Positions 3,587-53,081 of a stretch of 64,000 bases of DNA are shown one piece after another; within the stretch, counting starts at the first letter, position 1, and the number at the start of each line of letters is the position of its first letter. The stretch is taken from NCBI GenBank assembly GCA_951406725.2, contig OX597828.1:11098001-11162000 (forward strand). The letters are read 5' to 3'. This DNA comes from Octopus vulgaris (lineage: Eukaryota). A program made the translations under genes and the position numbers. The notes below the pieces were generated by a model. The model did not search any database. It saw only the letters and a program-made list of their open reading frames with translations, and was not told the origin of the DNA.

Positions 3587-4316
3587 TATATATATACATA
3601 TATATTTATATAGATACATGTATGTATGTATGTATGTATATACGTATGCATGTATGCATATATGTATACCCTTCAGTGCAGGCTACCATAGCTAAGGAGG
3701 TGGTGAGCCGACAATAATGTATAATCGATTGAAATTAATTATTAACGCAGTTAGGAAAAAAATGTCATTAGCGTAATTCTTAGTTCTTCTCTGTTCTCTT
3801 TTCTCTTTTTCTCATTCATTTTGACTTCTAATTAAATGCCCAAAATATTTCTATTTTCTCTCTTTGATGATGTCTAATAAAATTTTCTTCGTTTTCGCCA
3901 TTCTTAGAAATTCGTCATTGTTGCGTGTTCTGCCATTGATATTCACAAACGTTTTCTATGTGACCGTATTTTGATCCGTTAATGATCCATTGAATTAAGC
4001 GAGGGATCCCTGGGCCAATGACGAAACATCAGTTCCGCTAGAAATAGCAGTCAGTTCTCCGTCTCAAGAAGTGTGAGTGGCATATATGAAAATGTCGCAG
4101 GTGTACAAAAAGGTGGAATACTCATGGCAGGATTGTCGTTGATTACTGGTGAGGACCAATCCAGAGGATGGAAGTTAAACAACAATGGAATATGTAGGCC
4201 GTTGCCCGTCTTACAAGAAATAGCAGAGAATTCTTCTTCATACCAATTTTGAAAAGAAAATATGGGGAGTCGCAATCGAAATTATAGTCCAAGGCCTGGA
4301 ATTCATTTGTCTATTC

Positions 4317-5160
4317 AGGTTGCGAGCTGGCAGAAACGTTAGCACGCCGGGCGAAATGCTTAGCGGTATTTCGTTTGTCGTTACGTTCTGATTTCAAATT
4401 CCGCCGAGGTTGACTTTACCTTTCATCCTCTCGGGGTCGATAAATAAAGTACCAGTTACGCACTGGGGTCGATGTAATCGACTTAATACCTATGTCTGTC
4501 CTTGTTTGTCCCCTCTATGTTTAGCCCCTTGTGGGTAATAAAGAAATAGGTATTTCGTCTGTCGTTACGTTGTGAGTTCATATTCCGCCAAGGTCAACTT
4601 TGCCTTTCATCCTTTCGGGGTCGATAAATTAAGTACCAGTTACGCACTGGGGTCGATGTGATCGACTTAATCCCTTTCTCTGTATTTGTTTGTCCCCTCT
4701 ATGTTTAGCCCCTTGTGGGCAATGAAGAAATAAGAAACGTTAGCACGCCGGGCGAAATGCTTAGCGGTATTTTGTCCGCCTTTACGTTCTGAGTTCAAAA
4801 TTCTGCCGAGGTCGACTTTGCCTTTCATCCTTTCGAGGTCAATAAATTAAGTATCAGTTATGAAATGGGGTCGATGTAATCGACTTAATCCCTTTGTCTC
4901 TATTTGTTTGTCCCGTCTATGTTTAACCCCTTGTAGGTAATAAAGAAAATAAGAAACGTTAGCACGCCGGACAAAATGATTACTAGCATTTCGCCTGTCT
5001 TTACGTTCTGATTTCAAATTCCACTGATGTCGAATTTGCTTTTCATTCTTTCGGTGTCGATAAGATAAGTACCATTTGAGCACTAGGGTCGATGTCATCG
5101 ATTTATTCCCTTCGCCGACATTACTGCCCTTGTGTCAAAATCTGAAATCAATTACTACTA
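4317..5160 (+). mobile_element. Head-to-tail array of four family-B SINE units
   Basis: Units at about 4317-4548, 4549-4732, 4733-4951 and 4952-5160. Each has a B-box-like gttcaaattcc and the body gcctttcatcctttcggggtcgataaattaagtaccag. The first three end in tail 1 (...ccccttgtgggtaataaagaaata); the last ends in tail 2 (...cccttgtgtcaaaatctgaaatc plus short repeats). Confidence 0.9.
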
Positions 5161-5271: not shown

Positions 5272-5436
5272 AGGCGCAGGAGTGGCTGTGTGGTAAGTAG
5301 CTTGCTTACCAACCACATGGTTCAGTCCCACTGAGTGGCATCTTAGGCAAGTGTCTTCTACTATAGCCTCGGGCCGACCAAGGCCTTGTGAGTGGATTTG
5401 GTAGAGGGAAACTGAAAGAAGCCCGTCGTATATATG

Positions 5437-5485
<49 letters not shown>

Positions 5486-5688
5486 CTGTGCTTGTCCCCC
5501 CAATATCGCTTGACAACCGATGCTGGTGTGATTGCGTCTCGTAACTTAGCGGTTCGGCAAAAGAGACCGATAGAATAAGTACTAGGTTTACAAAGAATAA
5601 GTCCTGGGCTCGATTTTCTCGACTAAAGGCGATGCTCCAGCATGGTCGCAGTCAACTGACTGAAACATGTAAAAGAGAGTAAAAGAGA
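5272..5688 (+). mobile_element. SINE family A (tRNA-like head, CORE-like motif, internal microsatellite)
   Basis: Head aggcgcaggagtggctgtgtggtaag, CORE-like catcttaggcaagtg, internal (TA)n(TG)n and gtaaaagag repeat tail. Matches copies at 43820 and 54451. Confidence 0.9.
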
Positions 5689-5731
5689 GATGCCGAGAGT
5701 CAGATAAATCTTTGCACTGAATCCAAATACC

Positions 5732-5819
5732 TATTTCTTTATTACCCAGAAGGGGCTAAACACAGAGGGGACAAACAAGGACAGACATAGGTATTAAGTC
5801 GATTACATCGACCCCAGTA
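5732..5819 (-). mobile_element. 5'-truncated family-B SINE with tail 1
   Basis: Reverse complement is nearly identical to 4461-4548. Confidence 0.88.
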
Positions 5820-7252
5820 CATAAATGAAGTCAAGCTTGCTTTTCATTCCTTCGAGGCTGACTGTCGTATACTGAAATATATTATTCCCTTCATCCTTAC
5901 AGTCTTTCTCACCCCTATCGCTCTCTCTCTCTTATTCTCTCGCTTCCCCTTCTCGCTCTTTCACCCTTTCCCGCGCTCTCTCACTTCCATTCTATCATTC
6001 TTCGTCTAGTTCCCGCTTTAGAAAGAAAATCAGCCGTGCTAGATATGGACGTGAACGGGCTTCGTCATTTTTAAAAGATGTGCAGGACATGCCGTATGTC
6101 ATGACTGCATTTCAGCAATTCAGTCAAGCATGGGTGGGACAGTATTTCTTTACAGATAAACTAGCTCATTCTTTATCAGATACTTATTATCGTTGTTTCG
6201 TTCCACGTTTGCCCTGAGATAGTTAAGCCAAGATCAGTGATGCTCCTGCTATGGCAAACTGACTCGATTATACAGTATATTTAGTTTTACATTTTACAAT
6301 GTGTCGTTCTTCTTTAAGAGTTGTGAGATATTTTACTGTTATTTCTAGAGTTTTGGGTAACTACTTTGATCCTTCCCTCACCTCATCTGCAGTAACGAAT
6401 TACTAAAGTTTATGATGGTAGCTGTTCTATTCATCCGAGATGTATCTATACTAATGTTTCTTAACTCTCAAATAACTAAATCTATAAGGAATGAAATTCC
6501 ACAATGGATCAAAACAGCTAACGAATTAACGAGCACTTTAGAGCATACGACAAATTCTCTTGCAGTATGTGTTCCAGCTGTTTTTACACTCTGAATTCAA
6601 ATTCTATCGGAGTCAGATTTGTCTATTATTCTTTGGAAATTGATAAAATAAAATACCAACTCAGGGCAGTGGAACGGCAGAATTGATACAGTGCTGGTAT
6701 TTGCCCAAGCTTTTTACGTTCTGAACTTTAGCCTGGTGGACTTAGTCCGTCGCTCAGTTTAATACCACTGGCACAATCACCCTTCCTTATCGCGTCTTCA
6801 GGCGTGTTGGCTCCGTTGGAAGCATTGCAGGCAGATATCCGATTTGAGCTTAACGTCCGCTTTTCTTTTCAATAGATTTGAACATCCAGAAAAAATATGT
6901 CTCATAGACGTTGCCCTCCCTTTCACGATGAGTAGTAAAGGGAAATCTTTATAAAGTTGGGGTGTGATGTGTAACCGAGAAATACTGCATGAGATTGAAG
7001 TAATGTGTTGAAATTGATACTACAAAGTTGATTTGCCCAAGATAACCTACAGTTAAAGCAATTCTACGAGATCGAACGACTTGCTAGAAATGGCAACCAA
7101 ATCGTCTTCATATTTCATCAGACGTTCTTAATTATAAAAGTAAACACTGTTAGTGCAGTCTAAGTAAATCTTGACGCCAACAAGCGCAATTCTATGAGGT
7201 CGAACAACTTGCTAGAAACGTCAACCAGATCTACCTGGGATAATATCGCATA

Positions 7253-10213: not shown

Positions 10214-10684
10214 TGATCACCGAAAGATTAATCAAATGATGTATTCATTAGTGCGCGTCTGGAATAAACAGCAAGTACTAGGGAAATTAAATCACTAGTT
10301 ATAATCGAACGTTGCTGTTATGATAACATAGAGATCGAATGATCCATTGATCAAATACTATCATGAGAATCCTGATCGCCGAAAGATGAATAAATTGATC
10401 TATTCATTAGTGTGTATAATAATTAAACAGCAATTACTAGGGAAATGAAATCACTAGTTACTATCGAACGCTACTGGTATAATGACACAGAGATCGAAAG
10501 TTCCATTGATAAAATACTATCATGAGAATCCTGATCGCCGAAAGATTAATCAATTAATCAATTCATTAGTGCGTGGAATAAATAAATAGCGAGTACTAGG
10601 GAAATTAAATCACTAGTTATAATCGAACGCTGCTGATATAATGACATAGAGATCGAATGATCCATTGATCAAATACTATCATGA
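10214..10684. repeat. Tandem repeat, three copies of a 159-bp unit
   Basis: Units start with tgatc at 10214, 10373 and 10532, and share tactagggaaat.aaatcactagtta and tccattgat.aaatactatcatga. Confidence 0.93.
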
Positions 10685-30250: not shown

Positions 30251-30288
30251 ACTACATTGAAAATTACTTAATTATAATACGCATACAC

Positions 30289-30516
30289 AAGGCGGCGAGC
30301 TGGCAGAAACGTTAGCATGCCGGGCGAAGTGCCGTATTTTGTCTGCCGTTACATTCAGGGTTCAAATTCCGCCGAGGTCGACTTTGCTTTTCATCCTTTC
30401 TGAGTCGATAAATTAAGTACCAATTACGCACTGGGATCGATGTAATCGACTTAATCCGTTTGTCTCTCCTTGTTTGTCCTCTCTATGTTTAGCCCCTTGT
30501 GGGTAGTAAAGAAATA
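30289..30516 (+). mobile_element. Full-length family-B SINE with tail 1 and TSD
   Basis: Runs from aaggcggcgagctggcagaaacg to gtgggtagtaaagaaata. The 16-bp TSD is tataatacgcatacac (30273-30288) / tataatgctcatacac (30517-30532). Confidence 0.9.
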
Positions 30517-30918
30517 TATAATGCTCATACACTTTGGGGTGGCTAAATCGGTACTCCATTAAATAAAATGGCCTGCTGTATTTCCTTTTCAATCTCTCTT
30601 ATTCGAAGCCCACTTCTTTTGTTGATTAACTAAATCTGCATTTATGTTGCAGATGATGGGTAAAGCTTTTCTATCTGTGACCATTTCGTCTACTTTCTTT
30701 CGTGAACTTCACCGTTGTGAAAAACCTCAGGGAGCGATGTGTGAAAGTATTGGTTCTCATTCCAAAAGATCAACGGACCATGTAGAGACTGCTTGGTGTT
30801 TGACAACGATATGGTAGAGAATTATTAGGATTCGACTCCGGCAGAATTCGAACTCAGAACGTCGTGTTTTGTAAATAAATACTTCCTTAAGGCAGCGCAA
30901 TATTGTTCTTGCCACTCC

Positions 30919-48520: not shown

Positions 48521-48865
48521 TGTTTCTTTATTAGCCACACAGGGCTGCACACAGACAGGACAAATTACAAGGTAGAACTTTTCTTTTGGGGATAAAAAAG
48601 GGGGTTTGGTTTTCGATCAAAAGGGATCGTAAAAGGAAAGAAAGAGGGAAAAAGGGGGGGGGATAAAAATAAAAGGAAAACGAAAAAAATCGATCAATAG
48701 GGATCGTTATCACAGAAATGTCAATATAAAGTGTAAAGGGGAGGACAGGTGTGGTTTAACCGTGGAAAGAAAAGCCTACGGAAAAGATCACGTTAACCTC
48801 GGTCAATGAAGTCACATGTTATATATTTTTACAAATAAGCAACTCTCTGTATTAATTTTTACGGT

Positions 48866-51577
48866 TCATAGGATCATAGTCAAGGTGGTTTCGTCATTCA
48901 TACGTGCCATCCTTGCTACATTCACCCATCGTTTTTTAAAACATTCACTAGACAAAACTTGCCTCTCTACTCTCACTTTCCTCTTCAGGTGATGCTTGAA
49001 GAAGTTGATGAGAGATTGACCAGAGAGGAAAGTGTTTGTCTCTAATCCTTTCAGGCGCGTCCACCAGATACATTCCTTCGCCATAGCCACAAGTATGATA
49101 AAAATAGCTCTTCCTTCCCGTTTGGAGGAAGGAAGCGGGACGATATTAACGATAGACTCGGCTGATAAACTGACACGTCCCACACGTGACAGCAGTCGTC
49201 CGACATAAGCCCACAGGTCTGAGATTGTTGGACACTGCACGATTGCGTGCAGAACGGTTTCGTCGCTCTACCCGCATCTCGGGCAGGTCGGCCCGGTGTT
49301 TCTCGAGCCATGCCTGTAGAGCTTATCCCGAACGGGTAGCGCTTCTCGGTAGCACTGCCAGGCCAGGGATCTCTGGAAGTTGTCCATAGGTCCCGGCCCG
49401 AAAGTCGTTTCAAACAGGCGGGTCAGGTATTCCTCGTCGGCACCCAGGTTTGCCCCAAGATCGTCGTCGTACCCGCCCCTCCACTATTCCCCTATAGAAT
49501 GCTTTGGTTGTGTTGAAGTCACTCAAGGTCGACCCAGGACGGCAGAGTTGCTTGAGAGCAACGCAACACTCGCGGTGCCATTCACCCTTCCTCGGCCTCT
49601 TTTTGATCCACGACTGCAGTTCGGTCATTGAGACGAGCTGCGGGAAAGCGTGCCTCACAAACGGCGACCACACCTGTTCACCGTCGTCTACATAGAGCCG
49701 GAGATGTCGCAGTCTCAGCGCGTGTCTGCGCATCATCAACCACGGCATGCCCAGCCCTCCTTTTAACGGGTGTTGACAGCAAATGGATCGCCTGACCGTC
49801 GGGACGCATCCTTTCCACAAGAAGCAGAAGAGAATGCATTCTAGTTTGGTGATGGTAGGGTCGGGACAAGGTACGACGGTTAGGCGGTAGTAGATGATGG
49901 ACGCGATGTACGTGTTCGCCACCTCCGCCCGACGTTTGTGCCTTGTCGACCAGTTTATCGATGCCGAGCGCCAACCTCTTGGCTAACACCTTTCTCAAAA
50001 TTTTCAGGTCTGCATTGAGCAGAGTGATTGGCCTAAAGTTATCTATAATGTCCCCCTTGTTCGGATCTTTCTTCAGCAGCGTTACGGCTCCTGGACTCAC
50101 AAAACCGGGTATGCTCCCGTTTTGCTGCCAGTTGCAGTATACCGCTGCCTAGACGTCTCCAAACAAGTCTGGCATACTCGTAAAACTCGTAGGGCAGACC
50201 ATCCAAACCCGGCGATTTGTCTCTCGAGCATTCTGCCATTCCGTCCCGCATATCCGCCGCCGTGATGGCACCTTCGCAGCACTCTGCCTCTCTTGCCGAG
50301 AGTCGTGGTAGGCTGTGCAGGTAGGCACTGAAGTCCATCCTGCGTTCACGCTCGCCACTCGTTCCGTACAGTCGGGCAAATTGCCGGTGAAATGCCTCGC
50401 ACATCTTTCTGGGCTCGAGCAATTCGCGCCCTTGTTCATCTACAAGATGGCGGCTTTGTTGCCCTGCTGCGCCTCCGCCACCCGGGCCTCCCTCGTGGCT
50501 CCAACACCTTCCATCCTTAGAGCATGCATCCTAGCCCTGACAGCACACCCTTCGTGTTTGGCGTTGAAGTGTTGGTCAAGGGCCAACATCGCCGCTAAAA
50601 CGTCGGATGTGATGCCGCTTCTTATTGCCTCTTCTAACTTCTTAACTAACTCACCCTCTACTCTATTTCTATCTACGGCTAGTGCCTTGCTATATCTAAT
50701 TGCTTCCGCTTTTACTGCTCTCTTGAGGGCGAACCACCATTTTTTGTTGACGATGGCTCCCGTTAAACCTCTTTTTACTAACGTGTTGATTCTGTCTCTG
50801 AAAACCTGTCTGGACGGGAAAGATGCGTTCAGTTCCCAGTAACCGGGACCTTATCTATGTGCCTTATCTAAGTCTAGCGTACACGTCACGAATTTGTGAT
50901 CCGTGTAGCTGACAGTGTGGAATTGTGGACATCCTAAGTTATCCCTATCTACTGTCCTACACAGTATCCTATCTAGATACGATCTTGACAACCCACTGCG
51001 GTTGCTCCATGTCCACGTTGGTGCATTTGGGTGATCGAGTCGGTACCTGTCAGACAATTGGAATCGTCTGAGCAGGTCTCTGAGGCATTTGCATCCCCTT
51101 CTGTTTTTGTCTCTCCCCACATAGTCTAGATGCGTGTCCAAGGTAGCATTCCAACCCCCCACTAAAAGTAAAGGACGAGACGTTCCCAGGAATACTTCTA
51201 GACGTCGAAAGAAATCCGGCCGACCTGTTAAAGGCGGTGCGTAGACTGATACGAGTCGAAAAGCGCACCCATTGCTGCCGTCGACATCCTGAACGACCAG
51301 TCTACCCTCCGGGTCTACGAATATCGTCTTGACTTCGAGATCCAGGCTCTTGTGAAAAAGTACCGTGGTGCCACTACCGCCCATCCTCGGCAGACAGGGA
51401 GAAAAATAAATGTTAAACTGTTCCTCCAAACATGGACTTTAGGGCCCGTGGCTCGTAGAATCTGGTCTCACTTATGGCTATGATTCCCAAATCGTGTGAC
51501 TTGATGTCATTTAGGAGGTACCCTTGTTTCCAAGGAGACCCCAAGCCACGCGCATTCACACAACCAATCTTGAACAT
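48866..51577 (-). pseudogene. LINE ORF2 (APE endonuclease, partial RT, C-terminal Zn finger), frameshifted
   Basis: MFKIGCVNARG...IIAISETR; RLVSVYAP; LLVGGWN (GDWN with D to G); SYLDRI; TDHK; KSPGLDGLPYEFY; NFRPITLLNADLKI; HPLKGGLGMP; CPRC...HAIVQC. Confidence 0.92.
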
Positions 51578-51581
51578 GATT

Positions 51582-52994
51582 CTATTGGGGTGTGTGCTTT
51601 AAAACACAAAAAGGAAGGTACAGAGAGTTACTTACTTGTGTCGAAAGTTTTGGCTTCCTCGTCCTTTGATGTGTCTTGGAGGAGGTTTTTGTACAGTTTT
51701 TTCGAGAGATATTTTTGGAACCCCCCACCAACCGCATTTGGAAAGAGGGCTTTGAGTGTGTGGTGATGTGTAGTATTTTGATGTGTTTCGGTGGTGCAGT
51801 GCGTGGATGGTTGTTAGTTTTGAGGTCATCTTCACAGATGTTTGTGTGGGATGTGATGTACTCCATTAGTTTTGAGTCTTTGGTGTCTATCGCTGATAGC
51901 ATAGTGTGTGTTTTTGTGGTGTTTGTGCTGGTTTGGTTGTGTAAGGAGCTTTCAGGGTTCAGATATCTCCCTGCTTTGGTTGAGTTTTCTTGTTTGGGTT
52001 TTTTTAAATCTTTTTCTTTTTGCCATTCTGTCGAACTTTCATGGTTTGACGAAGAGTGTGACGAATCAGAAGGGGGTAAGGGCAAAGCATCTGGGTCTGT
52101 TTGTGCGGTTGTAGATATTGTTGTGGTGTGCGTGGGGGGGTGTTGCTTGGGGTTTGGTGTGGTAATTGTCTCTTCTACATCCTCGGTGCTTGTCTTCTTG
52201 GTTGTTGTTCTTGGTGTTGGAATTGATTTAGTTGTTGTTGGTGGTGTTGATTCTGTTCTTGGCGCAGGTGGTGGTGTTGTTTGGTTGGGTTGGTTCGTTC
52301 TTTGTTACTTTTCATGCATTTCTGCATATAACTGCTTGATTAGCCGTCCATACTGTGGTGTGGGCAATAACGCTGGCTTTTTTGGTTTTTCTTGCGGCTG
52401 TTGTTGTTGTTGTCGTTGTTTCGCGGCAGATTTGCACTCCTTTTTGAGGTGTGCTTCACTGCCGCATATATAGCAGCGTGGCCTTCTGCCCTCGACTACT
52501 ACATACAACTAGTGGTCTTCCGCAAGATGTATATGAGTGAGTATTTTGTTAATGGCGTCTTGGTTTATGTGGAGGAGAATCTCTAGTCTCTTTCCCACCC
52601 AGTTCTTGTGTTCCGAAACAGCGATTGGCAGGATGTTTATGTCCTCCATTTCGACGCATATGGCCGATGTTATCCATTGTATCTCTACTATTTTAGGAAC
52701 ATTATTGATAATGACTTTTCTTACCCTCTGGCCAAGCTAACTGGGTATCATTGTTAGCTCATCTGAATGAAGAGTTAGCATTGAGAATTGTTTTGCTATC
52801 TCTTCATTTTGAAAAACTACCTGTACGTGGGCAAACTTGTTCGACCAAGTTACATACTCATAGTATCCCCATATGGGGCGTAGGCATTTTTTGATTTTGT
52901 CTGTGTTTGCTTTTCTGGACTTTTAGTTGTGTTGTTTATTATTTTATATACAATTGTTCTCTTTTTTCGTCATCAAGTATGTGTTGAGGTATCT
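51582..52994 (-). pseudogene. LINE ORF1 (gag-like, CCHC zinc knuckle), disrupted
   Basis: GRRPRCYICGSEAHLKKEC is C-x2-C-x4-H-x4-C, followed by a Pro/Thr-rich region. The TAG at 51584-51582 lies four bases before the ORF2 ATG. Confidence 0.85.

Positions 52995-53081
<87 letters not shown>
52995..53081. repeat. (GATA)n tract, right flank of the LINE
   Basis: Directly visible. Confidence 0.97.

Follow-up and report, generated by a model that had tools for sequence, protein, structure and literature searches.

The window, i.e. the whole stretch of 64,000 nt of Octopus vulgaris DNA analysed here, carried an array of four SINE units, two further copies of the same SINE and a decayed LINE. With SINE positions numbered from the first base of the SINE, these features were as follows:

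4316..4548, forward strand: unit 1, SINE head and tail-1 body
4549..4732, forward strand: unit 2, of tail-1 type, with its restart at SINE position 50 (ggtatttcg)
4733..4951, forward strand: unit 3, of tail-1 type, with its restart at SINE position 17 (agaaacg)
4952..5149, forward strand: unit 4, the original target, an old-family SINE with tail 3, present from position 17 (agaaacg) on
5732..5827, reverse strand: 5′-truncated tail-1 copy, followed by a non-SINE site matching position 50 over 7 bases
30289..30516, forward strand: solo full-length tail-1 SINE, with its duplication at 30273-30288 and 30517-30532
48521..52995, reverse strand: L1/Tx1-type LINE, decayed and embedded in (TATC)n, with homology to tail 1 over its final ~48 bases

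An array of tail-1 units restarting inside their own head had been described in a first-pass annotation of this sequence, and four units were confirmed at 4316-5149. Units 1 and 2 ended exactly at aagaaata, as described there, whereas unit 3 ended at gaaaata, with one A more. The last unit, formerly assigned to tail 2, belonged instead to an old family designated tail 3 and not to the commoner second tail. Its divergence from its own consensus was 0.127, versus 0.03-0.06 for units 1-3, and its base 21 was of the tail-1 type, the other base being present in 64 of 65 solo old copies. The true 3′ end was indeed marked by the solo copy at 30289-30516, whose 16-bp duplication (2 mismatches) began directly after gaaata. 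The young units were thus stacked on an older last unit, in agreement with the earlier proposal that tail-1 SINEs had inserted repeatedly into the head of an older SINE. The array likely began with an insertion at position 17 of the old element, followed by a further one at position 17 and then by one at position 50; unit 1 is likely a chimera of the first bases of the old target and later inserts. Just downstream of the array, nt 5275-5690 contained a SINE of a different family, which has a (TA)/(TG) tract in its interior and a segment that we take to be CORE-like. At nt 10214-10684 lay a threefold tandem repeat whose 159-bp unit had no relation to the SINE.

The SINE was 233 bases long and dispersed, with target-site duplications of 10-21 bp at 48 of 88 non-SINE sites; its two tail variants had 74,299 and 20,904 exact matches in the genome. 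Box-like motifs were seen by eye at about positions 13-23 and 75-87, on comparison with A- and B-box consensus sequences, and ARAGORN and Rfam gave no match to the SINE. A run of four T residues was absent from every unit, making read-through possible. The 3′ tail was homologous to those of two LINE families, namely an intact relative of the window LINE (38 of 47 bases identical to tail 1) and the position-50 LINE described below (37 of 46), with alignment scores of 51 and 46 versus shuffle maxima of 34 and 29, respectively. For a MetaSINE central domain, no likeness to bivalve Meta alignments was evident by eye, and two short core motifs were absent from the portion of the supplement consulted. 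In the predicted folds of head and tail, hairpins surrounded both insertion sites.

Insertion sites across the genome

Exact joints between the tail and position 50 numbered 26,956 in the 2.8-Gb genome and those between the tail and position 17 numbered 2,078, versus none for reversed-pattern controls, which places them far above chance. Scattered restarts, which the first-pass annotation had named as evidence against nesting, were not observed, since restarts concentrated at these two positions. In a position-picked sample of 588,700 bases (drawn from 40 stretches on C2-C11 and from the window with its neighbours), 58 tail-1 ends were found, of which 21 were at position 50, 7 at position 17 and 5 elsewhere, and 25 had no restart; such sites made up about 6 per 100,000 strand positions of the sample. 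Tail-1 SINEs therefore landed about half the time at two fixed sites in older kin. In the same sample, none of the 61 ends of three sister SINE families lay at positions 50 or 17. As these families share head and core with the tail-1 SINE, body homology alone is not the cause. Under Kojima's rule, which in the part of the source consulted calls an element target-specific when over 20% of its flanks lie in one repeat (PMC4494074), the corresponding figures were 28/58 for the SINE and 79/96 for the position-50 LINE.

The two sites were used unequally by the tail variants. Judged by eye among the matches listed, 69 of 100 ends of the commonest variant lay in position 50, and the second variant had 16 ends in position 17 and 7 in position 50 among 100 matches listed; among 100 listed matches of the second family, no more than one end lay in these sites. 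Along arrays, the order 50-then-17 versus 17-then-50 was 27:7 in an enriched sample. By a rough measure, the joint/body depth ratio of position-50 joints was about 0.3 in one related organism, a more distant one in which these joints look scarce, versus about 1.5 in three others. Within the SINE core, a minor antisense hot spot (L297-L306) had 496 exact joints, and 7 of 10 viewed were true insertions with duplications. Two further arrangements were recorded. A short gap followed by a full SINE head was present at 27 of 210 sister-family ends, possibly a tandem habit at outer duplications, and at one locus (L108, C1 near 1,415,300) two arrays of opposite orientation were joined at position-50 sites, suggesting an inversion.

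Nesting and local duplication

The pattern of a head followed by a short duplication and a full SINE had 118 matches, some of which were tandem head repeats. The complete nested form, i.e. head, duplication, full SINE, duplication and remainder of the target, was present at 25 of 30 loci viewed and absent from 5, the duplications of the nested cases being 14-19 bp long and starting at position 50. Targets were tail-1 copies themselves as well as several older families. In arrays ending in an old family, the last unit was more diverged than the one directly before it in 33 of 35 (0.116 versus 0.033, p = 6e-7), a set that includes pattern-selected loci and uses an old-family consensus of 9 copies; an age test on outer duplications gave p values of 0.16 and 0.51. 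For one seamless position-50 locus on an old target (L288), a contig from another organism that is orthologous to it continued past position 51 as the old family, as read from 12 letters of this one contig.

Seamless homologous 5′ joins had also been claimed, and most joints were indeed seamless, with bases of the old head kept in about half. Among seamless position-50 arrays on old targets, T21 was kept in 5 of 10 and A38 in 6 of 10, these bases being present in 30 of 94 and 11 of 97 solo tail-1 copies, respectively; from base 52 on, old-type sequence was found in 0 of 10, the sequence being donor-type throughout. Truncated old heads were not restored in three cases.

Tail-1 dimers had a concordance of 0.51 versus 0.52 for random pairs, and 0 of 38 were identical. 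In arrays of three or more tail-1 units, concordance was 0.76 and 6 of 28 neighbours were identical. Across arrays, rare alleles were common to neighbours at 10-14% versus about 1% after shuffling, and 31 of 176 units of multi-unit arrays had their nearest neighbour within the same array. The annotation had named close kinship within arrays, and multimers moving whole, as outcomes that would speak against nesting. Units 1-3 of the window, all with a similar common haplotype, ranked 82-409 to one another among 449 compared units, and families of multimers were not found (Mantel r of -0.006, n = 72, and 0.032, n = 60). Restarts at positions 50 and 17 thus mostly represent independent insertions into pre-existing copies, and local duplication is real but secondary, adding a minority. 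Homogenised units and growth by duplication, by which a SINE-derived satellite is defined, were observed in part and in the longer arrays only.

That the arrays arose mainly from copied ready-made multimers, template jumps between RNAs or tandem duplication after insertion is highly improbable, and such copying or duplication as the main route was rejected by the age and dimer tests. This explanation would account for the single outer duplication bounding whole arrays, for the rare alleles common to neighbours, for the identical neighbours in longer arrays, for the frequent donor-type heads and for one array copied whole as the cargo of another element. However, nesting predicts an outer duplication as well, and the old terminal units, the presence of inner duplications, the unrestored truncated heads, the empty orthologous site (one contig, 12 letters) and the lack of multimer families all argue against it.

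Larger-scale copying and other tandem repeats were observed alongside. Copies of one four-unit SINE array (L416-L419) were found on at least 4 chromosomes along with kilobases of flanking sequence, the array being carried within a larger segment that was either mobile or duplicated. Head-only units (positions 1-65) occurred in tandem, with 8 copies at G000 C10:17,996,023-17,996,501 and further cases at L225 and L247; this head-only tandem is a minisatellite seeded by a non-seamless insertion. A 101-bp tandem of seven copies with the tail of the second family was located at G000 C1:15,779,655-15,780,295.

LINE families and junction footprints

The (TATC)n LINE family represented in the window possessed endonuclease, reverse transcriptase and zinc-finger domains, and its closest solved structure was L1 ORF2p (E 1e-55). 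As a targeter of position 50 it was ruled out, with 0 of 100 among the ends listed and no genome matches at SINE sites; a homologue search with a broken endonuclease piece gave no match. A sister of this family was found at position 50. Of its 96 tail matches, 79 lay in position 50, 4 in look-alike sites and 13 elsewhere as judged by eye, and all 30 of its 5′-end matches followed SINE positions 47-65. Three full-length copies had a 16-bp duplication, and one copy retained a frame of 1100 aa encoding endonuclease, reverse transcriptase and zinc finger, 55% identical to that of the (TATC)n family. Both families had two frames, with PF03372, PF00078 and PF13966 and a zinc knuckle in ORF1. The earlier guess of a Tx1 endonuclease was borne out to the extent that an L1/Tx1-type LINE with a related tail occupied position 50, its Tx1 label being presumptive and based on motifs. 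This LINE likely supplied the enzyme that moved the SINE.

Altogether, three sister LINE families with ORF2 identities of 55-71% were located at different sites, namely SINE position 50, (TATC)n and (ATT)n. The last of these (L392/L393; G000 C4:93.80-93.83 Mb, C47, C50), considered as a SINE targeter, was not located at the SINE; this family is young and of L1/Tx1 type, lies in (ATT)n tracts, retains many intact frames and forms head-to-tail arrays with a period of about 5.9 kb. No LINE at position 17 was found among 100 of 168 matches listed, and one class of candidates was rejected as being a copied array. A PF00078 profile search returned families that we take to be CR1-like and RTE-like and that lacked tail 1. 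One abundant young family (L308-L336), presumably CR1-like, had a 949-aa frame and ended in (ATT)n.

The bases at the junctions differed with the inserting element. At non-SINE sites, duplications started with GG in 28 of 53 cases for one tail variant versus 6 of 48 for the other (p = 2e-5) and with AG in 15 of 48 cases for the other variant versus 3 of 53 (p = 0.001), GG and AG being the same letters as at the SINE site favoured by each variant. Relative use of non-SINE sites climbed with match length, reaching about 700-fold at 6 bases. Where the first base mismatched, the letter of the RNA was in the downstream copy in 5:0 cases, with no clear bias at positions 2-4 (3:3). Positions 3-5 of the target were TAT-like whatever the tail variant (89, 103 and 85 of 126, respectively).

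Old-type units had C52 in 30 of 39 of their own heads and T52 in 35 of 35 after a joint; in a further set, C52 followed the joint in 8 of 100 among the matches listed. Twelve nested cases had C52 upstream, 8 of them with old-family targets, and T was present downstream in 4 of these 8, the other 4 cases, which were tail-1-type or complex, being left out of the count. At base 50, the SINE left G in 173 of 181 cases, about 30 of which were forced by the search pattern, and C in 0 of 69 of the unforced list. At the same site the LINE left C in 52 of 79, C50 being present in 40 of 167 heads. The 5′ flanks of the LINE had C50 in 30 of 30 and T63 in 20 of 30, and base 63 differed between the upstream and downstream duplicates of two copies, which suggests that the LINE RNA brings a SINE head. 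Target bases were thus overwritten in 4 of 8 cases and the tail variants predicted the first target bases, and it is likely that the flank carried by the RNA also picks the site.

Site choice and its place among known systems

The reading that we favour, with a probability of roughly 0.7, is that tail-1 copies entered the two head sites one by one via target-primed reverse transcription, using the enzyme of the position-50 LINE. In this process the SINE would be transcribed from its tRNA-like head and, with no run of four T residues, would read past its tail into the flank. The LINE endonuclease would nick position 50 or looser look-alike sites, and, as the footprints suggest, the run-on letters of the RNA may pair with the nicked strand, set the register and sometimes overwrite target bases. 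A second nick about 16 bases on would give the visible duplication that a minority of cases show. In most cases the new DNA would pair with the homologous head upstream, giving a seamless 5′ join and partly replacing the old head; the head upstream of the nick was donor-type in about half of the seamless cases, so that a conversion step is needed. Each event would yield a complete head and a fresh site, so that chains grow, as the structure of the arrays indicates, with local duplication lengthening the longer ones as well. The same feedback of the RNA flank, in another tail lineage, likely maintains the use of position 17. Read-through, pairing, homology-based seamless joining and movement of the SINE by the LINE are what we infer here. 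Against this mechanism counts the observation that the tail variant closest to the tail of the position-50 LINE mostly goes elsewhere, and the link between variant and site could therefore reflect different partners at different times.

A related explanation, in which Tx1-type LINEs with different nicking moved different SINE lineages over time and RNA pairing took no part in site choice, appears unlikely. The three sister LINE families at different sites, the recent look of position-50 joints by the rough depth ratios and the statement, in the part of PMC4494074 consulted, that the endonuclease is the main determinant of target choice are in its favour, but it leaves unexplained the overwriting of base 52 (4/8), the 5:0 polarity at the first duplicated base, G50 versus C50 at the same site and the use of position 17, where no LINE was found among the matches listed. 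The opposite extreme, a near-unspecific endonuclease with all lineages, LINEs included, returned by RNA pairing to the flank sequence of their source copy, is very improbable. It agrees with the rise in use of non-SINE sites with match length and with the much lower use of the antisense hot spot, a 4-base look-alike in the same SINE (496), than of the full match (26,956); yet enzyme recognition would give the same match-length curve, and the TAT-like positions 3-5 in most targets of both variants fit an enzyme preference.

Returning to stepwise insertion with the LINE enzyme, a wider form of it is put forward tentatively, at somewhat less than even odds: target choice would be inherited via the RNA, the transcript carrying its landing sequence and steering daughters back to it, so that one enzyme family could serve different addresses (position 50, position 17, microsatellites). 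The SINE would thereby be a landing pad for itself and for its LINE, full-length copies of which apparently have a SINE head at their 5′ end.

Crocodilian Tx1-Mar LINEs and SINEU offer the nearest comparison. According to the sections of PMC4494074 consulted, one target, within a Mariner, is common to a Tx1-type LINE and to the SINE that is its passenger, the tandem SINE insertions are successive, and co-transcription with the target is considered as a factor that would strengthen specificity; insertion of Tx1 in Tx1D is a further case of an element-in-element target. The octopus arrays are similar in that LINE and passenger share a target inside a mobile element and tandem insertions are successive. 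As far as those sections describe that system, they differ in that the target is the passenger's own head instead of a third element, in that most joins are seamless instead of having a visible duplication between tandem copies, and in that two sites are tied to two tail variants. In R2 and SART1/R1, target sequence at the 3′ end of the RNA anneals to the nicked target and raises efficiency, with 12% for 4 bases plus vector and 96% for 100 bases in R2Ol, as given in the parts of PMC6530143 and PMC7265360 consulted. Unlike these autonomous elements of rDNA and telomeres, as they are presented there, annealing in the octopus would concern a SINE whose lineages carry different flanks. In snap-velcro priming of L1, complementarity of 4-10 bases between RNA and primer adds to endonuclease preference in setting the site (PMC3649969, in the part consulted); L1 is described there as pairing via poly(A), whereas the letters that pair in the octopus system would be target sequence that was inherited. 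Tandem repeats built from SINE parts are also known as squamate SINE-derived satellites (PMC10702118); in contrast to the satellites covered in the consulted part of that paper, the octopus arrays were short (2-5 units), dispersed and made of mostly unrelated units. A literature search, with subscription papers, Repbase Reports and bioRxiv supplements outside its scope, found no published account of an octopus SINE that inserts in its own head, and such arrays were not mentioned in the consulted parts of PMC13282606, PMC4758252, PMC3531059 and PMC4824008.

What is new relative to Tx1-Mar/SINEU and to annealing of the R2 type is that the passenger is its own landing site. This would form a closed loop in which the passenger supplies landing sites for itself and its carrier, with tens of thousands of joints, and it would provide a route by which dispersed repeats become tandem ones, an entire promoter head being restored at each step. 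Since this one genome harbours sister LINEs that differ in target and retain intact frames, the shares of protein and of carried-over RNA in the target specificity of retrotransposons become testable. For this genome, the chimeric units confound repeat libraries and age estimates.
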